NCBI GenBank assembly: GCA_965223325.1
Contig: CBDCWI010000002.1
Location: 4,160,001 to 4,224,000, forward strand
Reading direction: 5' to 3'
From: Candidatus Multivoradales bacterium
Lineage (GTDB): Bacteria; Acidobacteriota; Thermoanaerobaculia; Multivoradales; Multivoraceae
Length of the DNA stretch: 64,000 nt
The translations under genes were made by a program, and so were the position numbers. The first letter of the stretch is position 1. Each line of letters starts with the position of its first letter. The notes below the pieces were generated by a model. The model worked only from the letters and a program-made list of their open reading frames with translations. It ran no database searches and was not told the DNA's origin. Below, in pieces: positions 2-11,692 of this stretch.

Positions 2-178
2 ATCTTCGAATCGAGGCCGGGCAGATCCACAGAGTTTGTGAAGATCGACACACACTCTGCTGAGCTACGCGCCGTCGGGTTCTCGTCGACGGGACGGTCC
101 CTAGTCGTTGGAACCAACTCCGATGTGACCATATACAGCCGTGTGACGCCGCCGAACAACCGGATGGAGCCGACATGA
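2..178 (+). CDS. 3' end of a cassette ORF (partial; possible WD40/beta-propeller end)
   Basis: Open frame from the window edge, ...ELRAVGFSSTGRSLVVGTNSDVTIY..., with the stop codon inside attC1. Confidence 0.5.
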   Translation: MFESRPGRSTEFVKIDTHSAELRAVGFSSTGRSLVVGTNSDVTIYSRVTPPNNRMEPT

Positions 179-230
179 ACAGCTCGGCTTCGCCTTCGCT
201 GCTCAAGCGGCTCATCCTTGTCCGTTCGGC
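151..230 (+). repeat. attC site 1
   Basis: gccgaac(151)...gttcggc(230), internal inverted repeats. Confidence 0.9.
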
Positions 231-608
231 GGCGAAGTCGCTATCCTGGCGCCTCAGCTGGGTCGCTCGATCCATCAGAGCGTAGCTCCGGCTTCCTTGT
301 TTAGGGGGCGCGCGTTTCCGCGGAAACGTCGTCCGTGCCTGGCGCCTGGCGATGGCTCCTCCGAATGCGAAGGTCGTCAGGCAAGTCAGCTCCGGGTCCG
401 GTTCTCCGCTCGGTTGTCGTAGAGCGACCCACAAGCTATATGTGTCGCTCCTGTCTACTCCGGTGTGCTGTCACCTTCATGGCAGAATGCCAGTGGGCAC
501 CGGTTCGAAACCGGCAAGGCTCTTGAGCACCAGGCCAGCGCTCTTCAGAAAGGAAACGTCTCAGTGATCGAAACGAGGGGCGTCGTAGATATCGGAGCGC
601 CGCCGAAC
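224..608. other. ORF-less (non-coding) gene cassette A
   Basis: Bounded by gttcggcggcg/cgccgccgaac; no credible ORF; palindrome cgtttccgcggaaacg at 313-328 and hairpins at ~422-450 and 500-514. Confidence 0.65.
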
Positions 609-688
609 AATGTGAATGCAGGGGGCATCGACCCTTCGTTCGCTTCGCTCCGTCGGGCCGCTGCCCCTGATCCACAGGGCCGTTCGGC
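602..688 (+). repeat. attC site 2
   Basis: gccgaac...gttcggc with a cgcttcgctc central motif. Confidence 0.9.
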
Positions 689-718
689 GGCCAACGAACC
701 TCATCAAAACGGGAGGCA

Positions 719-964
719 ATGATGCGTTCTGGATGGATTGGATTTCTGGCACTCTCAGGTTTTGTCATTCTCCTCGCAGTTGTAAACGTTGGCGCTACGC
801 AGCTCTCCGAGACACCGGAGAACTCCTGCTCTATTCAATGCCCGCAAAACACGGCCTATCCGGGTCTGGGAGGCAGTGTCACGTGCCGGGTCGGCTCAGC
901 ACCCGTCTGTCAATGCGTCAACCCTGAGGAGATGATGGCCTATTGCGAGAAGCTCGAAGAGTGA
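719..964 (+). CDS. Small secreted cysteine-rich protein (cassette)
   Basis: GGAGG RBS, N-terminal hydrophobic signal, 6 Cys in the mature part. Confidence 0.7.
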   Translation: MMRSGWIGFLALSGFVILLAVVNVGATQLSETPENSCSIQCPQNTAYPGLGGSVTCRVGSAPVCQCVNPEEMMAYCEKLEE

Positions 965-989
965 GCTGCGCCGAGGGCGTTAGTCACTG

Positions 990-1337
990 ATGGCGTCGAA
1001 ATGGATCATGATCGCGGGCCCTTACTCAAGCGGAGGCGCTTCAGCCTCGCGGCGCCGTGCGAATCTTCGCGCTATGAACGAGGTTGCGTTCGCGATCTAT
1101 CGCAAGGGTCACATACCGATAGTGGGGGTGAACCTTGCCCTTCCGCTCATCGAAATTGCGGGCGACGATTCGTACGAAGAGATCACGATGCCCTTGTCGC
1201 TCGCCGCAGCATCACGGTGCGATGCGGTTCTTCGAATCGGTGGCCCGAGTTCTGGCGCTGATGAAGAAGTCGAACGAATTCGCAAAGCAGGTGGGGCCGT
1301 TTACAGCTCCCTTTCCGAAGTACCGGAGGTCGCATGA
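990..1337 (+). CDS. DUF4406 / nucleoside 2-deoxyribosyltransferase-like protein (cassette)
   Basis: IMIAGPY..., RCDAVLRIGGPSSGADEEV motif typical of this family. Confidence 0.75.
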   Translation: MASKWIMIAGPYSSGGASASRRRANLRAMNEVAFAIYRKGHIPIVGVNLALPLIEIAGDDSYEEITMPLSLAAASRCDAVLRIGGPSSGADEEVERIRKAGGAVYSSLSEVPEVA

Positions 1338-1344
1338 ACGGGCC

Positions 1345-1431
1345 GCCGAACAATCGAAATGCACGAGGACTCGTACCCGTGCTCGCTTCGCTCGCTCGGG
1401 TACTCGCCTGTGATTTCGGGGGCGGTTGTGC
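1345..1431 (+). repeat. attC site 3
   Basis: gccgaac...gttgtgc. Confidence 0.88.
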
Positions 1432-1768
1432 GGCGGGGGAACCGTAGAGCTAGCGGCTCAAGGCGACCGCCGCGAATGATGCTCGGTGGGCCCGGGTGGA
1501 TGTGCGAGACGTCCTGGTGTGAAGGCAAGGGCCCTGCGCTGGGCCCGCCTGGTGCCGGCTGCCTATCAGCTCTATGGCCACTCGCTGAAGCGACTGCGTC
1601 TTCGAGGTTTCTTCACCACTACCGCGAGCGCCGCCCCGGCACGGCGCGGTGGTCTAGGTGATGCCTCGCGAGCCACGGCGCTCCCCAAGTACCCGTCCGG
1701 AACCCCGGACTTGCTGGCCTCCGCGAGTTGGAGTTATACTAGTTTGTCAATAATATGGAGTATCGGCC

Positions 1769-2266
1769 ATGGCTAGCATCTTCACACCTCTACTCGGCTC
1801 AGCTCTGCTCGGCCGGAGCCAGCCGATTCTCTTGGCCTTCGCCCTGGGAGTCTCCTCGCCCTTGGTGGCACGCGCCCAGGACTCCAAGCCGACGACAGCG
1901 CCAGTATTCGTCGCGAGCCAGTGCTCCGACGACTCCGTCGGGGAACGGGTTGCCTACTACGTTCGCGAAGGCATCAACAGATCCACCACCATGCGTACCG
2001 TGGATCGGTACGTCGATTCGGTTATTCGACTTAGCTTGGTTTGCAGTCCGCCGGTCCCTAGAGAGCGAGGCGGTCGGAGTGCGTATAGCTACCAGATCAC
2101 GCTCTACAACTTCGATGGGTACTACGACTTCGCTCTTACGCACGGAGTAGGGGTTTGCGGCAGTGACCGCGTTAAGAGTTGCGCAGACGGGCTTGTTGCA
2201 ACCACGTCTACCGAGTTGTCAGCGTTGCGTGCTCGCCTGGCGGATGAGAAATTCGAGTGGCCATGA
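1769..2266 (+). CDS. Secreted hypothetical protein (cassette)
   Basis: GGAG RBS, signal-like N-terminus ending ARA-Q, 4 Cys; AT-rich promoter-like stretch at ~1732-1757. Confidence 0.7.
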   Translation: MASIFTPLLGSALLGRSQPILLAFALGVSSPLVARAQDSKPTTAPVFVASQCSDDSVGERVAYYVREGINRSTTMRTVDRYVDSVIRLSLVCSPPVPRERGGRSAYSYQITLYNFDGYYDFALTHGVGVCGSDRVKSCADGLVATTSTELSALRARLADEKFEWP

Positions 2267-2381
2267 TCAGAACAAGTACATCGAGCCTAGGCGGGGGTAC
2301 CTCGATTGCGCTTGCGGTGTGCAAGACATGAGAACCGCCCAGCGGCCAGACTCGTCACCGGCAACGGACCAGAGGGCCGCC

Positions 2382-2465
2382 GCACAACAACCGCATTCAG
2401 CGCGACTCGTACCCGCGCTCGCTGCGCTCGCTCGGGCACGAGCGGCTGATGCTCGTCCGTTGGAC
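2382..2465 (+). repeat. attC site 4
   Basis: gcacaac...gttggac. Confidence 0.9.
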
Positions 2466-2483
2466 AGCCTTGAGGCAACCACC

Positions 2484-3170
2484 TTGAATAGGTCAAGAGA
2501 TCGTGTGCTTGTGACATGTTGGAGCGTGGCTATGTCGCTCACTCTCGTGTCCTGTGCCGAGGAGTCAGAAGCTATGAAGCTCTTCAGAAGGTCCGTTTCC
2601 GTAGAGACTCAGTTGGCGGAACTCCGATCCTGCGGCATTGAGCTGAACGAGGGAGTCGAGATCGGCGATCTGACGACTTTCGACGACCGCGCTGCGCTGG
2701 AGAAGCGGCCCTACCAGGGCCTCGTTGAGGTTTTGGGTATCGACGTCGAGCGTGAACCGTTCACCCCTATCTGCGACTCGCTGTGGATGTGCGACTACGA
2801 GAGGGTCGAAGATCACGGGGCGTACGCTGAGGTCCTCGAGCGCCTTGAGCTCATGACAGGCTCAGCCTTGGGGTTATCCGACATAGAAGATCACGTTGAC
2901 GTCTTCGACGAAGGCGTTGCTTGGGTCTCGTTTACGTTCGGCGGCCAGCCGCACAGGTGGGATTTCGAGGTGCAAGATGACTGGCTCGATCCCACCGTTT
3001 TCGTGAAATACGATCAGATGCTGAAGGCCGCTGAGTCTGAAGTGAGGATCTACTCGAACCATACCGACTACGGACAAGTGGCATTTCTCGCGGCCTTCAG
3101 CGCGTCACAGCACCGGTGCTTTGAGAAGCTGTCCCCGGTGAAGTTGATGCAGATCGAGTACCAGGCATGA
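2484..3170 (+). CDS. Hypothetical acidic (lipo)protein, cassette copy 1
   Basis: Fills the cassette between attC4 and attC5; probable TTG start after a GAGG RBS; LVSC lipobox-like motif; start uncertain. Confidence 0.75.
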   Translation: MNRSRDRVLVTCWSVAMSLTLVSCAEESEAMKLFRRSVSVETQLAELRSCGIELNEGVEIGDLTTFDDRAALEKRPYQGLVEVLGIDVEREPFTPICDSLWMCDYERVEDHGAYAEVLERLELMTGSALGLSDIEDHVDVFDEGVAWVSFTFGGQPHRWDFEVQDDWLDPTVFVKYDQMLKAAESEVRIYSNHTDYGQVAFLAAFSASQHRCFEKLSPVKLMQIEYQA

Positions 3171-3188
3171 GAGTTCCCCAGTGCGGCT

Positions 3189-3273
3189 GTCCAACAACCA
3201 CGTGCACTGGACGCGTACCCCGCACTCGCTTCGCTCGCGCGGGCTCCGCGCCAGTGACGTTCGTCCGTTGGAC
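3189..3273 (+). repeat. attC site 5
   Basis: gtccaac...gttggac. Confidence 0.9.
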
Positions 3274-3287
3274 GGCTGAACGGGGAA

Positions 3288-3902
3288 TTGACCGTGGGTA
3301 GGGCGACCATCGCCAAGAAGACGTTCGACGTGAACATCGAGCGAGCCAGCTACTTCCTCGACATTCACGAGCAGACACAACCCGGCGTCGGCGCGCCAAC
3401 ACTTGCCCGCCGAGAGCTCCCGAGAGGTGCGATTGTGTTCGGTGTCGGAGCGCTCGATGCCTACCTGTCCGAAATCTCGGCGGAGGTCATCGTTACTCGC
3501 CTCAGGGAAAGTGAAGCTTCTTCGCGCGAACGAGAAATCTTGAGGAAGGTCCAGAACGAGCTACCCACGCTAAGTCTCGAAGTGGCGCTCCTGGGATCTC
3601 AGGCCGCGAGGATCCAGCACATCCGAGATGCAGTGACGGACCACTTCTTCAACCATGTAAGCCATCATGGATCCAAGGCGGTGGGAGCAGTTCTGCAGCG
3701 AATGGACCTCCGGTCCGCCGACTTTTGGAACCATCTCTCCTCTAAAGGCCACAACGACGCAGCAGAGCGCTTGGATCACTGGACCAACGTTCGTCATGAG
3801 ATCGTCCATCATGGAAAGAAACCTCAGGTCCGCCGGCCACAGGCCCGGAAGTTCATCGAACTGGCCAAGGCTCTCGCCAGCCGATTGGACCATCATGCGT
3901 AG
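3288..3902 (+). CDS. HEPN-domain putative RNase (RiboL-PSP-HEPN-like), cassette
   Basis: C-terminal R-x4-H motif (VRHEIVH) and N-terminal AIVFGVGALDAYLSE helix typical of HEPN. Confidence 0.75.
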   Translation: MTVGRATIAKKTFDVNIERASYFLDIHEQTQPGVGAPTLARRELPRGAIVFGVGALDAYLSEISAEVIVTRLRESEASSREREILRKVQNELPTLSLEVALLGSQAARIQHIRDAVTDHFFNHVSHHGSKAVGAVLQRMDLRSADFWNHLSSKGHNDAAERLDHWTNVRHEIVHHGKKPQVRRPQARKFIELAKALASRLDHHA

Positions 3903-3909
3903 CCACGCC

Positions 3910-3995
3910 GTCCAACAACCGCATGCACGTGGACGCAGACCCCGGGCTCGCTGCGCTCGCTCGGGGTTCACGCCAGTGATGCTCGTCCGTTCGGC
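3910..3995 (+). repeat. attC site 6
   Basis: gtccaac...gttcggc. Confidence 0.9.
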
Positions 3996-4024
3996 GGCTG
4001 GCGCGCCGCGATACAATCAGGACC

Positions 4025-4267
4025 ATGACTGACGACGCCGCTGCCGTTCTCGAGCAAGCCCTGGTCCTGGACGAGTCATCCCGGGCTGACGTGGCTGCCG
4101 CCCTCATTCGAAGTCTTGAGCCTCCTGAGGAGGCAGACGTCGAAGAGGCCTGGCGCGAAGAGGTTCGCCGGCGCCTCGACGACTACAAGGCAGGCGAGAC
4201 CTCGACGGTCCCTTGGTCAGAAGTGCGCGATCAGCTCTTCTCGAGGTTGCGTGCCGCTAGAGGTTGA
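4025..4267 (+). CDS. Addiction module antitoxin (TIGR02574-like)
   Basis: EEAWREEVRRRLDDYKAG..VPWSEV motif; overlaps the downstream toxin. Confidence 0.88.
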   Translation: MTDDAAAVLEQALVLDESSRADVAAALIRSLEPPEEADVEEAWREEVRRRLDDYKAGETSTVPWSEVRDQLFSRLRAARG

Positions 4268-4541
4268 ACTTACACGCCGCGCCCGCCTCGACATCGACGC
4301 CGGGTTCGAGTGGTACCTCGAGCGAAGCCCCAACGCTGCCGAGTCGTTCCTGCGCGAAGTCGATCGCGGAGTCGCCCTGGTCGTCGAGGCACCCGGCGTG
4401 TGGCCCACATTCGAGGGCGCCCAACGCTACGTACTCAACCGTTTTCCCTATTCGCTCATCTACACCGTCGAGGGTCATGTCGTGGTCGTACACGCCGTCG
4501 CGCATCAGAGCCGGCGCCCCGGGTACTGGAAGGACACGTGA
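4251..4541 (+). CDS. RelE/ParE family toxin
   Basis: GTG start at 4251; RYVLNRFPYSLIY...AVAHQSRRPGYW is a classic ParE C-terminus. Confidence 0.9.
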   Translation: MPLEVELTRRARLDIDAGFEWYLERSPNAAESFLREVDRGVALVVEAPGVWPTFEGAQRYVLNRFPYSLIYTVEGHVVVVHAVAHQSRRPGYWKDT

Positions 4542-4549
4542 GCGGCGCC

Positions 4550-4632
4550 GCCGAACACACAGGTCGAGCTGACGTGAACCCGCGCTCGCTTCGCTCGCTC
4601 GGGCCCACGCAGCTCACCTTCGTCCGTTGGGC
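4550..4632 (+). repeat. attC site 7
   Basis: gccgaac...gttgggc. Confidence 0.9.
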
Positions 4633-4673
4633 TGCTCGGGAACCGCATGCGGTGAGCGCAGGTCGAACGATTC

Positions 4674-5204
4674 ATGGCTTCGAGGCGAATCCTCCGCACC
4701 CGGCCGGCCCTGCTGCTGTTGTTGCTGGTCGCCGCCTCCGCTCCACTCGGGTGCGTCGGCCGGCATCATCGCGAACTTCCTCCGCTCGTCAGCACGGAAC
4801 TCACACTCACTGGCGCGTCTTCGGCCCTTCTCGAGGGCCGTTGGCGGGATGTCGATTGGGTCGTGCTCGCAGAAGTCCAGCCGCGTCGACTCTCCGTTCG
4901 GGTACCAGACGGATTCTGGATCAGTGATGCGCGCGTGGTCGACCGCGAGGTTCGCTTCTTGCTTCACGGAGGCGGCGGAGAAGGCGAGATGGCGCTTCGT
5001 TTGCTGGATGCGGAGACAGTCGTGCTTCTTCCCGCCGGAAGCGAGCCGTCCTTCTGCGGAACCTGTACCCCCTACATGTCTCGTCTATCGACGCTCATCC
5101 GTCACCGTGCGCCGCGAGCTGTTCCTGACGGTCTCGCGTGGTTCTCAGACAGGGTCGAGGAACGGTACGAGGCCGGGATGGACTGGCTCGCATCCGTTCT
5201 TTGA
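4674..5204 (+). CDS. Putative lipoprotein (cassette)
   Basis: Basic N-terminus, hydrophobic stretch, PLGC lipobox-like motif; CGTC motif. Confidence 0.7.
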   Translation: MASRRILRTRPALLLLLLVAASAPLGCVGRHHRELPPLVSTELTLTGASSALLEGRWRDVDWVVLAEVQPRRLSVRVPDGFWISDARVVDREVRFLLHGGGGEGEMALRLLDAETVVLLPAGSEPSFCGTCTPYMSRLSTLIRHRAPRAVPDGLAWFSDRVEERYEAGMDWLASVL

Positions 5205-5211
5205 GCGCGCA

Positions 5212-5294
5212 GCCCAACAACTCACTCCACGCGACGCAAACCCGCTTCCGCTTCGCTCCAGCGGGCCTGCGCGCGTGAGCCTTGTCCGTTGGAC
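5212..5294 (+). repeat. attC site 8
   Basis: gcccaac...gttggac. Confidence 0.88.
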
Positions 5295-6095
5295 AGCCTT
5301 GAGGCAACCACCTTGAATAGGTCAAGAGATCGTGTGCTTGTGACATGTTGGAGCGTGGCTATGTCGCTCACTCTCGTGTCCTGTGCCGAGGAGTCAGAAG
5401 CTATGAAGCTCTTCAGAAGGTCCGTTTCCGTAGAGACTCAGTTGGCGGAACTCCGATCCTGCGGCATTGAGCTGAACGAGGGAGTCGAGATCGGCGATCT
5501 GACGACTTTCGACGACCGCGCTGCGCTGGAGAAGCGGCCCTACCAGGGCCTCGTTGAGGTTTTGGGTATCGACGTCGAGCGTGAACCGTTCACCCCTATC
5601 TGCGACTCGCTGTGGATGTGCGACTACGAGAGGGTCGAAGATCACGGGGCGTACGCTGAGGTCCTCGAGCGCCTTGAGCTCATGACAGGCTCAGCCTTGG
5701 GGTTATCCGACATAGAAGATCACGTTGACGTCTTCGACGAAGGCGTTGCTTGGGTCTCGTTTACGTTCGGCGGCCAGCCGCACAGGTGGGATTTCGAGGT
5801 GCAAGATGACTGGCTCGATCCCACCGTTTTCGTGAAATACGATCAGATGCTGAAGGCCGCTGAGTCTGAAGTGAGGATCTACTCGAACCATACCGACTAC
5901 GGACAAGTGGCATTTCTCGCGGCCTTCAGCGCGTCACAGCACCGGTGCTTTGAGAAGCTGTCCCCGGTGAAGTTGATGCAGATCGAGTACCAGGCATGAG
6001 AGTTCCCCAGTGCGGCTGTCCAACAACCACGTGCACTGGACGCGTACCCCGCACTCGCTTCGCTCGCGCGGGCTCCGCGCCAGTGACGTTCGTCC
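5288..6095 (+). repeat. Exact duplicate of cassette 2459-3266
   Basis: Identical by eye at offset 2829; ends at the attC crossover points. Confidence 0.95.
5313..5999 (+). CDS. Hypothetical acidic (lipo)protein, cassette copy 2
   Basis: Identical to 2484-3170. Confidence 0.75.
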   Translation: MNRSRDRVLVTCWSVAMSLTLVSCAEESEAMKLFRRSVSVETQLAELRSCGIELNEGVEIGDLTTFDDRAALEKRPYQGLVEVLGIDVEREPFTPICDSLWMCDYERVEDHGAYAEVLERLELMTGSALGLSDIEDHVDVFDEGVAWVSFTFGGQPHRWDFEVQDDWLDPTVFVKYDQMLKAAESEVRIYSNHTDYGQVAFLAAFSASQHRCFEKLSPVKLMQIEYQA

Positions 6096-6102
6096 GCCGT
6101 AC
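6018..6102 (+). repeat. attC site 9 (core mutated GTT>GCC)
   Basis: Same as attC5, but the R' box reads gccgtac instead of gttgtac. Confidence 0.85.
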
Positions 6103-6484
6103 TGCGCAGGGCACAGTCTAGGTAGCGGCCGGGGCATCGCGAGCTCAGCACGTTGCGCTATCGTCGCGGCCGATTCCGCCGAGCCGTTCGCGGGTGCCGA
6201 CCGTCACGTTCCCGCGGAAACGTTCCGGCGCCACCGCCGGCCCGCGGTGCCGCTCGGCCGGCAAGCTGTACCAGTCGGCCAAGGCCGGGCGGGCACTGGT
6301 TCCTTCTCGTAGCTGTTCAGCGGTGCAAGAATGTGCCTGTACCTGCGCCGTGCAGCCCTCGTCTCTCACCCGGCCGGCGCTACGGAGACCGGGCCGGTTC
6401 GTGGCTCGTGCCTTCTCGTCGAAGAACGCTGCGAGGATCTGAAGCGAACGTCAGCCATGGCAGCCGAAGAGAGCGCAGTACAAC
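6096..6484. other. ORF-less gene cassette B
   Basis: Homologous to 9379-9767; no conserved ORF; near-palindrome at 6207-6222. Confidence 0.7.
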
Positions 6485-6560
6485 AACCCGGTCAACTCGA
6501 CATGAACACGCGTCCGCTTCGCTCCCGCGCGTTCATGCGAGTTACCGTCGTCCGTTGGGA
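6478..6560 (+). repeat. attC site 10
   Basis: gtacaac...gttggga. Confidence 0.88.
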
Positions 6561-6565
6561 GGCCT

Positions 6566-6574
6566 TGGTAGAAT
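6566..6574 (+). promoter_or_regulatory. Extended -10 promoter (TGgTAGAAT) for a leaderless TA transcript
   Basis: TGn-TAGAAT 6 nt before ATG 6581; no RBS. Confidence 0.55.
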
Positions 6575-6580
6575 CTCGTC

Positions 6581-6802
6581 ATGGCTGACGTTTCTATGTC
6601 CGAAGTTCTTGAGCTGCCGGTGGAAGAACGCCTCCGCCTAGCCGAAGCGATCTGGGACAGCATCGCTGAATTCCCCGAGTCTGTTCCTCTTGCGGACGAG
6701 CACAGAGAAGAGCTCGACCGCCGCCTTGACGCCTACTACCGTGATCCAGCGTCCTCGAGCCCCTGGCCCGATGTGAAGAAGAGGCTGCTGAGCGGGAAGT
6801 GA
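6581..6802 (+). CDS. Addiction module antitoxin (TIGR02574-like)
   Basis: LPVEERLRLAEAIWDSI...EELDRRL...SPWPDVKKRL. Confidence 0.92.
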   Translation: MADVSMSEVLELPVEERLRLAEAIWDSIAEFPESVPLADEHREELDRRLDAYYRDPASSSPWPDVKKRLLSGK

Positions 6803-7098
6803 CACTTGCATCGATCGTCACGCCCGAAGCCGAAGCCGACCTGTCCAACGCGTACTCTTGGTACGAACGCAGGGTCGATGGTCTCGGGCTCGACTTCATC
6901 GAGGAGTTTGAGGCGTTGCTGCAGAGGATCGGTGAACGCCCGGATTTGTACCAAGTCGTGCACCGCGATATCCGTCGAGCACTACTCCGCCGGTTTCCGT
7001 ACGCCGCGTTCTACGTTCAAGAGCTCGGGGCCGCCGTCATCATCGCTGTCTTACACCAAGCACAACACCCGCGGCGCGCCCTGTCCCGTCGGCGCTAG
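6799..7098 (+). CDS. RelE/ParE family toxin
   Basis: PEAEADL..AYSWYE...IRRALLRRFPYAAFY...AVLHQ; GTGA overlap with the antitoxin. Confidence 0.92.
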   Translation: MTLASIVTPEAEADLSNAYSWYERRVDGLGLDFIEEFEALLQRIGERPDLYQVVHRDIRRALLRRFPYAAFYVQELGAAVIIAVLHQAQHPRRALSRRR

Positions 7099-7109
7099 TG
7101 AGCACGGCC

Positions 7110-7194
7110 TCCCAACAACGCGTTCCAGCAGACGCGAACCCCGGGCTCGTTGCGCTCGCTCGAGCTTCGCGCTGCTGAACTCAGTCCGTTGTGC
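7110..7194 (+). repeat. attC site 11
   Basis: tcccaac...gttgtgc. Confidence 0.9.
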
Positions 7195-7661
7195 GGCCTA
7201 AACTCGAGATTGCTGGCGCGCTGCTAGCCGGCGCGTTTCTCATAGCCTCGCCTCTCTCGGCGGGCGTAGGTCTGTGTGCGACCGTGGACGACGTTCAGGT
7301 TCTTGAGGAAGCGAACGGCTCGGCCACGGCAGTGAGAGTCTCCGGAGTGCATGACATCGGCGGACCTATCGACGTCATCGTGGTGTCGCTCGAAGTGCCC
7401 GGTCGGATTGCTGCCGAAGTGCACGTCTGCGGCGGCCCCAACATCCCGACCTCGTTCGACGAGACGCTTCCTCTGCCTGTTCTGCCGAAGGGCAGCTACC
7501 AACTGGAGACCATAGTCGTAGCTTGCAACTCGGAAGACAACCGCGAGTTGTGTAGCGTTACGCCCTTCGAGATCACCGTGAGTCCTATCCCGACCATGGG
7601 TAGGGCCGGGCTTGCGGCCTTGGCGATCCTCCTTCTCTGGTCAGCCAGGAGACGGCTGTGA
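7191..7661 (+). CDS. Secreted protein with IPTL-CTERM sorting tail (cassette)
   Basis: Signal peptide; C-terminal SPIPTMGRAGLAALAILLLWSARRRL (IPT-motif, TM helix, basic cluster). Confidence 0.8.
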   Translation: MRPKLEIAGALLAGAFLIASPLSAGVGLCATVDDVQVLEEANGSATAVRVSGVHDIGGPIDVIVVSLEVPGRIAAEVHVCGGPNIPTSFDETLPLPVLPKGSYQLETIVVACNSEDNRELCSVTPFEITVSPIPTMGRAGLAALAILLLWSARRRL

Positions 7662-7706
7662 CGGTCAGGGCAGGCACGAGAGAACACGCCAAGCGGCCGC
7701 CCAACA

Positions 7707-8181
7707 CCTATGAGGTCCCCTGACGTCAAGCGGCAAACGTCTCCTAGCGGACGCGGTCCGTAACGGTTTTCGGTCAGGTTTCGAATTCTGACTTTGGTTT
7801 CAGAGTGGGTGCGAGGCGAAGCCTCTGCACCAAACACCTATTGGGCCTCTGCCCTCGCCGAAGCGACGACTGCTGGCAGAGCCAGCGGACCAGAAACACA
7901 TCGGTGCCCTCGTACCGTCCGATTCAAACCGTGCTGGTCACGCCGGTGGCGTGCCGGAGTTGGTTGCCTGGTTCGGGTGAGGGGCAGAGGTCGAGATCGA
8001 CCGAATGCTGGCAGGTGAGTGGGAAGCCTCGTCCATTCAACCGGTCTGGCTGCCGGCTCTTGTGTCTCAGGCGCGTTGGGTGTCGATGCACCTGGAGCGG
8101 GTACTCCAATGAAGCGCCAAGGATGAGATCGGGCCGTGTGGCTCCAGTTAGGCGGAGGGCTCGAGGCTTCCAACTCGGAGA
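7707..8181 (-). ncRNA. Putative bridge RNA / seekRNA region of the IS1111-type element (copy 1)
   Basis: ~475-nt hairpin-rich non-coding end downstream of tnp, where IS1111-family guide RNAs are encoded; conserved in copy 2. Confidence 0.7.
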
Positions 8182-9225
8182 TCAAGCGTTCATGAAGGTC
8201 GGGGGGTGGAAGGCTTCGTTGTTCTTGAGCATGAAGTAGACGGCGCGGCCCAGCTTGTGGCGGAGCACGGCGTAGGCCTTGGTCTTGCCGTGCTTGCGCT
8301 TGAGGCGCTCGAGCATCTTCTTGCCGTGAGCCTGGCGCTGAGCGAAGAGCACGGCGGCCTCAGAGAAAGCCCACTTGAGGTGGTGGTTGCCGATCTTGTG
8401 GCGACCGCTGCCGGTTCGCTTGCCTGCAGACTCATGCTGCGGTCGGATCAGCCTGGCGTAGGAGGCAAACTGCTGCACGGTGGGAAACCTCGAGATGTCT
8501 TCGATCTCGTAGAGCATCGTCATGCCGAGGATAGGACCGACGCCGGGAATCGAAGTGAGGCGCGACAGTACGCTTGGATCGTGATCCTTGGCCAGAGCGA
8601 AGAGATGCCTCTCGACATCGGAGATCACCTCGTCGAAGGCCGCGATGAGTCGCTAGTTGGCGTCGATACTTTTCTTCGCTGACGGATCATCGAAGTGATG
8701 GAGGAGATCCGTGCGGTCCGACGGCCTGGCGATCCTGCCGAGCGACGTGTCGCAGTTGTACTGAGTGTTCGAGGTGCGGATGTGGACGAAGAGCTCGGCG
8801 CGCTTGCGTGTGAAGTACTGGCGCCTGCGCAGGAGATCTCTCGCGGCTCTCATCTTCTTGGGATAGGTGTAGGCCATTGGAAAGGTCCCGCCTCGTAGGA
8901 GGGCGGCGAGCTTGTAGGAATCGACCTTGTCGTTCTTGGCCTTGGCGCCGTGGATCGCGCTCATATAGAGGGCGTGGCCAAGCACGAATTCGATTCCCTC
9001 CTCGGCGCAGAGGTCGGCGAGCCAGTACCAGGAGAACATGCACTCGACACCCACGACCAGATCGTCTCGGAAGGGTTCGATGGCCTCGAGGAAGGCATCA
9101 GGCCGAGCGGGGATGTTTCGGTGGTAGATCTTCTCGCCGTCCTCGTCGAGGACGCAGAGGTACATCTTGCGAGCATGCAGATCGACACCGCAGGTGTGGC
9201 GATGACGGCGGTTGTAGAATCGCAT
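8182..9225 (-). pseudogene. IS110-family DEDD recombinase/transposase with one in-frame stop (TAG at 8653-8655)
   Basis: GVDLH / VEC / KNDKVDS RuvC-like DEDD motifs and C-terminal SIPGVG...HESAGK; the two ORFs are in the same frame (347 codons if read through). Confidence 0.92.
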
Positions 9226-9378
9226 CGAGGTCTCCTTGAAAAGAGTTTCTGTTTTACCGCTCGCAAGCTACCGCGTGGGTAGCTCGCCAGGGGACCTCAA
9301 TGATCTTCAATCGGATGGAGCCGACGAGAACCTGCGCTCGCTTCGCTCGCGGCAGTTCCCGCGGCTCTTCCTCGTTCC

Positions 9379-9767
9379 GTTGTACTGCGCAGGCACCGCC
9401 TGGGTAGCGGGCAGGGCGTCGCGAGCTCAGAACGTCGCGAGATCGTGGCGGCCGGTTCTGCCGGGCCGTTCGCTTGTGCCGGTCGCGACGTTCCCGCGGG
9501 AACGTCGCAGCGTCGCCCACCGCCCTGCGGTGCAGCTCGGCCGCTTCGGTGTGCTCGTCGGTCAGGGCCAGGCGGGCGCCGTGTTCTTCTCGCAGTCGCT
9601 CGGCGGTGCAAGAATGGGCCGGTACCTGCGCCGTGCAGCTCTCGTCTCTCACCCGGTCGGCGCTACGAAGGCCGGGTCGTTTCGTGGCTCGAGCTTTCTC
9701 GTTGAAGAACGCCGCGAGGATCGGAAGCGAACGTCAGCCAGGGCATCCGAAGAGAGCGCAGTACAAC
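9379..9767. other. ORF-less cassette C (homolog of B), fused to the downstream ORF
   Basis: Roughly 80% identical to 6096-6484 by eye; 24-bp perfect palindrome at 9485-9508. Confidence 0.7.
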
Positions 9768-9770
9768 GAC

Positions 9771-10274
9771 GTGGCTGAGATCCGCTGCACGAAGAAGCTG
9801 CTCGGTCGGTTCCAGCAGGAGCGTGGAGTGCAAGTCAGCGGCGGCGCCGCTCTAGGCAACTGGGTCGCGAACATCGTTCCCGTCTTCGGGGGTGAGGTTG
9901 TACTTGCGCTGAACGAGCTTTACTTGCTCACGCTCGTCCTGCCCTCCGATCGGCTCGAGAGACTTCCGGAGACGGTCGGTGCCGAGGCGTCCAAGGTGCT
10001 TCTTACGGCCGGCGCTCCACCGGCCTTTGCCGGCGCGGTCCAAGCTGAGGCTGCCAGCGCCTTGATCGCGCAGAACAGAAGTCGGCACTTCGTTGGTTTG
10101 CTGAACCAGGTCTCGGCGGCCGTGCAAGAGTGGGCAGAGCTTCCGTCACCCTTCCTTATTCGCAACCAGGCTGAGATGGAGAACCGGCTCCTGGGTTGGC
10201 TCTACGGGCCACATCCGAACTACCGCCACCCCAAGGACGAGATCGCCAGAGCAATCGAGCGCTTCCGTGAGTAG
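9771..10274 (+). CDS. DUF6933-like protein
   Basis: GTG start; IRCTKKLL...LGNWVAN...LALNE..LLTLVLP...NRSRHFVGLLNQ pattern. Confidence 0.7.
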   Translation: MAEIRCTKKLLGRFQQERGVQVSGGAALGNWVANIVPVFGGEVVLALNELYLLTLVLPSDRLERLPETVGAEASKVLLTAGAPPAFAGAVQAEAASALIAQNRSRHFVGLLNQVSAAVQEWAELPSPFLIRNQAEMENRLLGWLYGPHPNYRHPKDEIARAIERFRE

Positions 10275-10277
10275 GCA

Positions 10278-10360
10278 GGACAACCACCCGGTCAACTCGA
10301 CATGAACCCGCGTCCGCTTCGCTCCCGCGTGTCCATGCGAGTTACAATTGCCCGTTAGCC
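10278..10360 (+). repeat. attC site 13 (near-identical to attC10)
   Basis: ggacaac-cacccggtcaactcgacatgaac...gttagcc. Confidence 0.85.
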
Positions 10361-10378
10361 AGTGCAGGCGACGCGATA

Positions 10379-10443
10379 CAGCCACGAACCCCGGCTCGCT
10401 GCGCTCGCTCGGGCTTCGTGCTGCTGAGCCTTGTCCGCTGGGC
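10379..10443 (+). repeat. Degenerate attC remnant (no AAC box; core GCT)
   Basis: Central arms resemble attC6 and attC11; ends ttgtcc-gctgggc. Confidence 0.7.
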
Positions 10444-10453
10444 CGCACCTGGT

Positions 10454-10478
10454 GGTAGCATGGTATCCGTGCTATCAT
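10454..10478 (+). promoter_or_regulatory. higBA operator inverted repeat overlapping an extended -10 (TGcTATCAT)
   Basis: tagcatgg-tat-ccgtgcta; TATCAT 6 nt before GTG 10485. Confidence 0.6.
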
Positions 10479-10484
10479 GTTTGC

Positions 10485-10781
10485 GTGATTCGGTCGTTCG
10501 CAGACGCCGGTACTGAGGACATCTTCAACGGTCGGAACACTCGGGCCGCAAGGAAGTCGTGCCCGCGCAACCTTTGGAACGTGGCCGCGCGCAAGCTGGA
10601 ACAGATCGACGCCGCTGAGGAGTTCGACGATCTGCGAGTCCCACCGGGAAACAGGCTAGAGGCGCTGTCAAGAGACCGAAAGGGACAGTTCAGTATCCGA
10701 GTCAACTCTCAGTACCGCATCTGTTTCGTCTGGACTCCGTCCGGCCCGGACGAAGTGGAGATCGTCGACTACCACCGCTAG
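10485..10781 (+). CDS. higB: HigB (RelE-like) toxin
   Basis: IRSFAD...DLRVPPGNRLEALSRDRKGQFSIRVNSQYRICFVW...EVEIVDYH. Confidence 0.95.
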   Translation: MIRSFADAGTEDIFNGRNTRAARKSCPRNLWNVAARKLEQIDAAEEFDDLRVPPGNRLEALSRDRKGQFSIRVNSQYRICFVWTPSGPDEVEIVDYHR

Positions 10782-10789
10782 AGGTCGCC

Positions 10790-11104
10790 ATGGTTCGCAT
10801 TCCCACTCACCGCACCCCAACTCATCCCGGCGTTATGCTGCTCGAGGACTTCCTCGAACCGATGGGCATCTCGCAGCGCGAACTGGCCGATGGGATTCGC
10901 GTTCCGTACCAGCGGGTCAACGAGCTGGTGAACGGGAAGCGTGGCGTCACGCCTGCCACCGCCCTGCGCCTGGGGAAGTTCTTCGGCATGAGTGCGGGGT
11001 TCTGGATGAACCTTCAACTTCGGTGGGACCTCTTTCACGCCCAGCGATCCGAGGGTGAGGCTCTCAGGAAGATCCGCCAGGTAAAGGTAACCGTGGAGGC
11101 CTGA
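10790..11104 (+). CDS. higA: HigA HTH antitoxin
   Basis: PTHPGVMLLEDFL...KRGVTPATALRLGKFFG..AGFWMNLQ. Confidence 0.95.
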   Translation: MVRIPTHRTPTHPGVMLLEDFLEPMGISQRELADGIRVPYQRVNELVNGKRGVTPATALRLGKFFGMSAGFWMNLQLRWDLFHAQRSEGEALRKIRQVKVTVEA

Positions 11105-11122
11105 GGTGGGCACGGCCCAACA

Positions 11123-11598
11123 CCGATGAGGTCCCCTGACGTCAAGCGGCAAACGTTTCCTAGCGGACGAGGTCCGTAACGGTTTTCGATCAGATTTCGA
11201 TATCTGGCTTTGGTTTCAGAGCGGGTGCGAGGCGAAGCCTCTGCACCAAACACCTATTGGGCCTCTGCCCTCGCTTTCGCGACGACTGCTGGCCTGGGCC
11301 AGCGGACCAGAAACACATCGGTGCCCTCGTACCGTCCGATTCAAACCGTGCTGGTCACGCCGGTGGCGTGCCGGAGTTGGTTGCCTGGTTCGGGTGAGGG
11401 GCAGATGTCGAGATCGACCGAATGCTGGCAGGTGAGTGGGAAGCCTCGTCCATTCAACCGGTCTGGCTGCCGGCTCAGATGTCTCAGGGCGCGTTGGGTG
11501 TCGATGCACCAGGAGCGGGTACTCCGATGAAGCGCGATGGATGAGGTCGGGCCGTGTGGCTCCAATTAGGCGGAGGGCTCGAGGCTTCCGACTCGGAG
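11123..11598 (-). ncRNA. Orphan copy of the IS1111 right end plus putative bridge RNA (no recombinase)
   Basis: Follows gcccaaCA (11115-11122) exactly as copy 1 does; IR at 11127-11138; >90% identical by eye to 7707-8180; homology ends at the position of the tnp stop codon. Confidence 0.75.
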
Positions 11599-11692
11599 TT
11601 CCACCCATCGCGGTGCTTGCTACGATGAAATCCGTGCGCTTCACGGCTTCTGACAAGACGCTTCACACGACCCGGCCGAGGCGTTAGGCCCC

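Follow-up and report, generated by a model that had tools for sequence, protein, structure and literature searches.

We analysed a 64,000-nt stretch of the genome of a Candidatus Multivoradales bacterium (contig CBDCWI010000002.1, positions 4,160,001 to 4,224,000; hereafter the window), in which a run of integron attC sites lies on the + strand at 143-10446. One unit of this run, cassette C, carries a non-coding element and a gene of the DUF6933 family between the same pair of cassette boundaries, and the R'' box of a second attC stands between the two. Positions are those of the window unless a contig (C1 or C2) is named. The parts of the cassette are as follows.

9309-9379, + strand: 3' part of the attC upstream of cassette C (nhmmer hit 9308-9389), split by an insertion sequence (IS) and ending in the G of R'
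9380-10354, + strand: cassette C, 975 nt, made up of element, R'' box 1, GAC, DUF6933 gene, R'' box 2 and attC body
9380-9767, + strand: element of cassette C, a non-coding body of 388 nt that begins TTGTACTGCGC and ends GCGCAGTACAAC
9758-9767, + strand: R'' box 1, GCAGTACAAC, fully complementary to the start of cassette C and all that is left of an attC at this place
9768-9770, + strand: GAC, between box 1 and the start codon, where the attC sites of the genome have a spacer AAC, AAT or AAA
9771-10274, + strand: DUF6933 gene, 167 codons, with a GTG start at 9771 and a TAG stop at 10272-10274
10275-10284, + strand: R'' box 2, GCAGGACAAC, at the head of the attC of cassette C, which looks functional
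10285-10354, + strand: attC body of cassette C, 70 nt, with the G of R' (GTTAGCC) as its last base; the nhmmer hit at 10271-10363 has E 1.1e-19

An earlier, sequence-only reading of this DNA had described a box, 3 nt, a complete open reading frame (ORF), a second box and an attC similar to that of a neighbouring cassette, B. Reading the sequence bears out this anatomy and its placement: the two boxes (gcagtacaac and gcaggacaac) lie at 9758-9767 and 10275-10284 and are identical at 9 of 10 positions, and the attC body that follows box 2 matches that of cassette B at 62 of 70. Their common pattern, GCAGKACAAC, has four occurrences in the window where 0.15 would be expected; one of these, inverted at 9379-9388, is the start of cassette C itself. 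This start (TTGTACTGC, from 9380) is complementary to the R'' of the cassette's own attC at 9 of 10 positions and to the internal box at 10 of 10. A 20-nt word of the attC body is found twice, with 0.01 occurrences expected.

Cassette C has a 3' attC that runs from R'' to R' (AAC...GTT), a start complementary to R'' and an integron integrase elsewhere in the genome, as is expected of an integron cassette. The R' of the attC upstream reads GTT at 9379-9381, and the G|TT sites at 9379 and 10354 enclose both the element and the DUF6933 ORF, with no GTT-type site in between. What is left of the first attC is an R'' preserved at 10 of 10 positions; L'', L' and R' are gone and there is no hairpin, the 91 nt from box 1 failing to fold (z +1.4) when compared with real attC sites (z -2.7 and -3.4). 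The bottom strand of the attC that closes cassette C folds as a hairpin (z -2.7).

The arrangement is present in independent contigs from four public sequencing runs, which span 9665-10315 or 9694-10315 with 0 differences; the runs belong to one study and at most three samples, possibly of the source culture. A mis-assembly, which the sequence-only reading had named as one of two findings that would overturn it, was rejected, as these contigs bridge the junctions and the joints that seemed to skip 517 nt or to go back 450 correspond to the paralogous cassettes B and D.

An attC profile (nhmmer) built from ten window sites finds 13 attC sites in the window and 51 in the genome, and one more window site, at 596-690, was spotted by eye. 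No integron integrase lies within or beside the window array. The only one in the genome (C2:3807261-3808190; TIGR02249, 422.7 bits against a cut-off of 265; no stops) is about 350 kb upstream of the window, where it heads an array with 27 attC sites. The window array is thus a satellite cluster of attC sites lacking an integron integrase (CALIN), a class reportedly defined by Cury et al. in 2016, beside a sedentary chromosomal integron.

The ORF encodes a complete DUF6933 domain (Pfam PF22016; E 4.2e-16; residues 4-156 on positions 2-156 of a 157-position profile). Its only close homologue among 5.8 billion proteins is a metagenomic protein of 169 aa (P0002; 56% identical), which is encoded on a contig of 1246 nt and was compared as protein. 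Because P0002 begins MAEIRCTKKLL, the start of the ORF can be fixed at GTG 9771, three bases past the box; the genome's own annotation starts the gene 29 codons further up, inside the element. The gene is present in a single copy. Of 401 genomes sampled across the phylum, 12 contain its family, this one included, with one match per genome in the 11 others, and among the 57 genomes of the taxonomic family DUF6933 is found in this genome only. A protein search with the gene itself reached 2 of the 401 genomes. A protein scan of public metagenome contigs for its relatives gave 102 pattern matches, none of them real, a plasmid search gave one weak match, and a protein-atlas look-up returned DUF6933 clusters only. 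No attC was obvious beside six distant DUF6933 homologues, the flanks of which were read by eye.

Gene-less copies of the element

Comparison of cassette C with the other units that contain its element, in whole or in part, allowed us to consider in which order the two states arose.

6097-6554, + strand: cassette B, 458 nt, ORF-less, with the element at 6097-6484, R'' at 6475-6484 and attC body at 6485-6554
6011-6096, + strand: attC upstream of cassette B, with GCC, not GTT, as R'; its near-identical twin at 3182-3276 has GTT
C2:3809673-3810130: cassette D, 458 nt, gene-less, the third unit of the true integron, with a full attC
C2:4487908 (C2:4487846-4487988), minus strand: cassette E, which has only the first 63 nt in common with the element

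The genome holds three copies of the element, in B, C and D, two of which lack the gene. Those of C and D are 95.9% identical (16 differences in 388), compared with 82.4% for B and C (319/387) and 81.7% for B and D; between B and C, the 3' half is better conserved than the 5' half (87% versus 78%). In cassette B, the R'' GCAGTACAAC at 6475-6484 runs straight into AACCCGGTCAACTCGACATGAAC. Both B and D measure 458 nt, and C measures 458 + 517 nt exactly, its extra DNA relative to B consisting of GAC, the 504-nt ORF and one 10-nt box. The start-to-stop exactness to which the sequence-only reading drew attention is real, but it is not telling. Stop codons adjoin R'' in many cassettes here (in several units, at 79-85 nt before the cassette ends) and the leaders of single-gene cassettes in this genome are 0-18 nt long, so that the exact fit of the gene is ordinary.

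Cassette B begins with CC in place of TT. The crossover triplet before it (6094-6099) is lost, which locks B to the preceding cassette. In cassette E, the 63 shared nucleotides are followed by a reversed gene of 323 aa with a Y1 (IS200-like) transposase domain (E 6.3e-6; C2:4486603-4487571).

No reading frame is open and conserved across all three copies of the element, no Rfam family matches it, and compensatory change affects 2 of 140 predicted pairs, which is not convincing as covariation; on these grounds we rejected the element as protein-coding or as a known RNA. No promoter-like site was found within 9200-10500. The survey of relatives with and without the ORF that had been proposed earlier yielded the two gene-less copies in this genome and none outside it: the whole element was found in one of 41 genomes and in one of the 57 family genomes, its own genome both times, and three other genomes of the 41-genome search matched over 25-38 nt only. 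Exact-pattern scans gave 0 matches to GTGCAGCNCTCGTCTCTCACCC in public genome contigs, 3 to GAAGAGAGCGCAGTACAAC in public contigs, none reaching beyond the 19-mer, and 15 to ACCTGCGCCGTGCAGCNCTCG in metagenome contigs, none reaching beyond the pattern; such scans miss diverged copies and do not demonstrate that the element is absent.

An 18-nt palindrome, ACGTTYCCGCGGRAACGT, is present in all three element copies (9488-9505 and 6206-6223 among the window sites). It recurs at 312-329, in another apparently ORF-less cassette (227-684), and at unrelated loci, some of them inside long ORFs (C2:2317630, C2:2405572, C2:2406656 and C1:1777174). The genome has about ten such sites, and a related genome (G007) has at least four copies. 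A role as operator was rejected, as a long candidate ORF contains the palindrome at three of four inspected loci.

With B as outgroup, 15 of the differences between the C and D elements can be polarised, six falling in C and nine in D. The resulting tree, ((C,D),B), comprises three paralogues of one genome and is the basis on which we distinguish gain from loss. The phylogeny of the element, which the sequence-only reading had proposed as a check, does give a polarity: the elements of C and D look like true sisters, and the gene-less 458-nt cassette looks ancestral, with C derived. A pattern in which all homologues but one carry the ORF, which had been set out as the mark of a simple deletion, is not what the genome holds.

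Loss of the gene would require a C-like unit to be ancestral and B and D each to have lost the gene by slippage between the 10-nt direct repeats. These repeats, 517 nt apart, are a classic deletion substrate, and microhomology deletions have occurred nearby, for example in an IS copy that is internally deleted between GATCTTC repeats at C2:3827365. On the tree above, however, two independent and identical deletions are needed, together with parallel changes in the spacer after R'', which is AAC in B and D (the commonest state in the genome) and GAC and CAC after the two boxes of C. We therefore read the gene-less cassette as the older one. Moreover, the inner part of D's attC is unrelated to that of C, and loss leaves the origin of the ancestor's internal box unexplained. 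Taken together, we consider this course of events very unlikely.

Polarity would become unreadable if the closeness of C and D were secondary, the integron and the satellite array having exchanged element sequence by gene conversion; the join in C would then be older than it appears. There is some reason to consider this, as the genome's attC sites and the ends of its cassettes have a mosaic make-up. The attC of D is B-like in its outer parts and different inside, cassette E has no more than the beginning of the element, and whole cassettes have been duplicated in the window (2394-2693 and 5223-5522, 93%). By contrast, the 16 differences between C and D are evenly spread (eight per half, without a gradient along the element), 15 of them can be assigned, in both lineages, and no edge of a conversion tract is visible, which makes such a mosaic history quite unlikely.

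Origin of the join in cassette C

The attC body of C is closest to that of an unrelated cassette at C2:3811188 (64/70), followed by that of B, and matches D's at fewer than 51 of 70 positions, differing from it throughout the inner part. Of the 29 R'' and spacer positions that are the same in B and D, 5 differ in C, compared with 0.5 expected at the rate of the element (Poisson P 1.5e-4, or 0.017 at three times that rate, for positions picked after seeing the data). The G at the fifth position of box 2 occurs in 1 of 43 attC sites of the genome. Had an ORF been slotted into a D-like cassette, the attC of C should be nearly identical to that of D, given elements that are 95.9% alike. As it is not, capture is not the best reading. 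The distance from D's attC and the derived positions suggest instead that the attC of C most likely arrived with the gene, from a separate DUF6933 cassette, and is not a shifted orthologue of D's.

We consider cassette C, with a probability of about 58%, to be a fused cassette, formed when the attC between two neighbours lost everything past its R''. One neighbour would have been a 458-nt cassette without coding content, like B and D, and the other an ordinary DUF6933 cassette. A deletion starting at the bond just past the first R'' would then have taken the attC, its R' and the short leader of the DUF6933 cassette, leaving the element, R'', GAC, the gene and the gene's own attC. With the integrase unable to cut between the two parts, they would form one unit of 975 nt. 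Observed are the anatomy of C, its paralogues and their lengths, the contig support, the point of IS insertion and the differences between attC sites; from these we infer that two cassettes once stood here, that a deletion joined them and that an IS may have had a part in it. Fusion is supported by cassettes B and D, which as full 458-nt cassettes with an attC make the element a cassette in its own right, and the length of C fits two units, as IS-free units in these arrays typically measure 412-862 nt. Cassettes in which an attC is truncated to a recognisable R'' are a described class (Partridge et al. 2009, as summarised in a passage of PMC12901181).

The bond at which C ceases to match B and D is also the bond at which an IS has repeatedly inserted in this genome.

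7706-9308, - strand: IS110/IS1111-type IS, inserted right after the R'' AAC of an attC, with an in-frame TAG in the transposase
11115-11601: further IS copy, truncated
C2:3820231-3821846, C2:3825905-3827357, C2:4398887-4400502 and C1:2124988-2125287: further IS copies

All seven left junctions of these IS copies lie directly after the AAC of R'', reading ...AAC|ACC(T/G)ATGAGG or, in one copy, ...AAC|CCCTATGAGG, and all four right junctions read ...GATCTTC|AAN, before the AAN spacer. In the copies at attC sites, the transposase is antisense to the cassettes. It matches DEDD_Tnp_IS110 (PF01548, E 1.1e-14) and Transposase_20 (PF02371, E 7.8e-21), the latter a C-terminal domain of the IS110 family. 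The genome contains three full-length and several partial copies. Two full copies were translated and both are broken, that of the window by the TAG, which takes the place of Q in another copy, and that of the integron by a frameshift. An IS-associated deletion from this bond would leave R'' whole, and, judging from position, the loss of the first attC may have been of this kind.

Several observations weigh against fusion. Neither the unfused pair (element-attC followed by DUF6933-attC) nor a stand-alone DUF6933 cassette was found in the 57 family genomes or in the exact-pattern scans of public contigs. The deletion kept R'' entire and ended 3 nt before the start codon, which is tidy for a random event, and the link to the IS is one of position, with no IS remnant at the join. 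Fusion further needs the attC of the gene to have had an R'' within one mismatch of the element's, as do 3 of 40 unrelated attC sites (over all pairs of sites, 19% come this near), and to belong to the four-member attC type that C's attC shares with B's (4 of 51 sites). The attC sites of C and B differ at 9 of 80 positions, a distance that would be expected as well of orthologues that parted when B split from C and D. The coincidences of R'' and attC type keep capture alive as an alternative.

Capture would mean that a complete ORF was joined before the ready-made attC of an empty B- or D-like cassette, the 10-nt R'' being duplicated in the manner of a target-site duplication. The exact 517-nt excess of C, flanked by near-identical boxes, would be expected, as would the absence of the ORF from two of three copies and the difference in this respect between C and D, the closest pair. 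The attC of C is of B's type, and their 62/70 match is at about the element's own divergence. In addition, mobile DNA is known to enter at the bond after R'', as the IS does here; passages of PMC3001079, PMC7923331 and PMC11187229 describe IS1111-family elements and group IIC-attC introns entering near the 5' end of attC, and PMC7923331 also mentions a suggestion that these introns link genes with attC sites.

We nevertheless judge capture unlikely. Besides the distance between the attC sites of C and D, with their 5 derived changes, the spacers GAC and CAC after the two boxes both depart from the ancestral AAC, and terminal inverted repeats are absent from the insert. Nor is the likeness of the two boxes rare in this genome, given the 3 of 40 unrelated attC sites within one mismatch. 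Under the established attC x attC model, a crossover made by the integrase on either strand would bring the attC body along: worked through on paper, bottom-strand, top-strand and secondary-site crossovers all did so and none placed an R'' directly against an ORF, and an integrase-made product was rejected accordingly. We know of no mechanism that inserts a bare ORF with a 10-nt duplication.

The formation of the cassette by a group II intron likewise finds no support here. The genome has 14 copies of a reverse-transcriptase ORF, identical in score, on C1 and C2 (for example, C1:64188-64880), all outside both arrays; the one copy checked belongs to a group II intron (RF02005, 180.6 bits), and no GIIM domain was found in the genome. 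Both arrays and their borders are free of group II introns, and neither the attC nor the gene of C bears an intron remnant. The choice between capture and precise excision offered by the sequence-only reading holds in so far as C appears to have gained the gene. Excision is the weaker of its two halves, capture is not the best explanation of the gain, and fusion, which was not on the list, fits better.

Finally, the 517 nt could represent a tiny mobile element with the DUF6933 protein as its transposase and the 10-nt repeat as target-site duplication, which we regard as highly improbable. The idea draws on the predicted fold of the protein. A model from seven sequences (predicted local distance difference test score (pLDDT) 77, predicted template modelling score (pTM) 0.73) has a fold like that of RNase H and integrase cores, and VIA-align places it nearest to the cores of retroviral integrases and DDE transposases (best Z 8.6, root-mean-square deviation 3.1 A, 117 residues aligned). 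The best 25 rows are all integrases or transposases; best Z values of 7-8 are common for unrelated models, as the tool itself notes. Foldseek matches are weak (best E 1.1e-2), and comparing the DUF6933 profile with the sequences of solved structures turned up no meaningful match. Against such a role, the residues invariant among the seven members are M1, W31, L77 and G109, none of them acidic, and the positions of a D-D-E triad cannot be placed; 167 aa leave no room for a DNA-binding domain; and the gene occurs once here, with one match to the family in each of the 11 other genomes that have it. Terminal inverted repeats were searched for and not found, and the transposon reading of the insert was rejected. 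The integrase-like fold is a lead, not a function.

The surrounding array

Beyond cassette C lies a unit of which much is missing.

10355-10446, + strand: truncated neighbouring cassette, in which about 24 nt from the 5' end of a cassette run into the inner part of an attC without R''; R' is GCT

The nhmmer hit in this unit spans model positions 25-96 only, and its 5' end is homologous to the cassette start at C2:4398808 (minus strand). The window array is decaying by deletion and point mutation, as seen in this truncated cassette, in the R' triplets GCC and GCT and in the broken IS copies, and this decay is a further point in favour of fusion in cassette C.

One cassette is duplicated together with its attC (2394-3277 and 5223-6098). 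The 93% identity of the two cassettes given above extends over 300 aligned nucleotides, and 95-nt stretches of their attC sites agree up to the crossover triplet. Two cassettes, at 6581-7098 and 10431-11104, carry toxin-antitoxin pairs, an addiction-module antitoxin with a ParE-like toxin and a HigB-like toxin with a helix-turn-helix antitoxin. In the integron about 350 kb away, the integrase lies upstream of its cassettes (array from C2:3808965) and on the same strand, rather than divergent from them as in the textbook layout.

Relation to known systems

How integron cassettes acquire genes is still an open question, and any before-and-after pair is valuable. Were capture true, D would represent the state before and C the state after in one genome, the first natural pair for cassette assembly, possibly mediated by mobile elements that target the bond on the R'' side. 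The evidence here points to an ordinary alternative, in which the decay of a satellite array welded two cassettes together. The locus is useful for its family of non-coding cassettes in three contexts of one genome and for a probable fusion that kept the R'' box only. The position of the break, at the insertion point of an attC-targeting IS, suggests that such elements may help to create fused, operon-like cassettes.

The window array resembles other CALINs (the term as used in part of PMC7923331) in having 13 profile-found attC sites and one found by eye, no integrase, and cassettes shared with an integron about 350 kb off. Nothing sets it apart from an ordinary CALIN, although its decay is marked, with lost R' triplets, IS insertions and truncated cassettes.

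The window IS recalls the IS1111-attC group (ISPa21, ISPst6 and ISKpn4), whose choice of target is guided by a seekRNA according to a section of PMC11187229. Like that group, as described in passages of PMC3001079, it has a DEDD transposase, inserts at one fixed point near the 5' end of attC, lies antisense and occupies several attC sites of one genome. Unlike that group, the IS copies checked here are broken, and the likeness is one of domain and position. The formation of cassettes by group IIC-attC introns (Leon and Roy 2009, as presented in parts of PMC3001079 and PMC7923331) similarly joins a gene to an attC at its R'' end. Neither array here has such an intron, and that model explains the joint between gene and attC, not an R'' before the gene.

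The closest parallels to cassette C are fused cassettes. Those of clinical class 1 integrons differ in setting, C belonging to a chromosomal, integrase-less array of an environmental bacterium, and C differs from known examples in that its first partner is non-coding, the break falls exactly on the bond between R'' and spacer, and the unfused state is unseen. Like type (i) of Partridge et al. 2009 (through the summary in part of PMC12901181) and like blaGES-1/aacA4 (PMC4670013), C holds two cargo units in one attC-bounded cassette and retains a short 5' remnant, the R'', of the first attC; by analogy, the pair is predicted to move solely as a block. Cassette C has thus probably gained its gene by fusion rather than by capture, and would add one more example to a known class of unusual cassettes.

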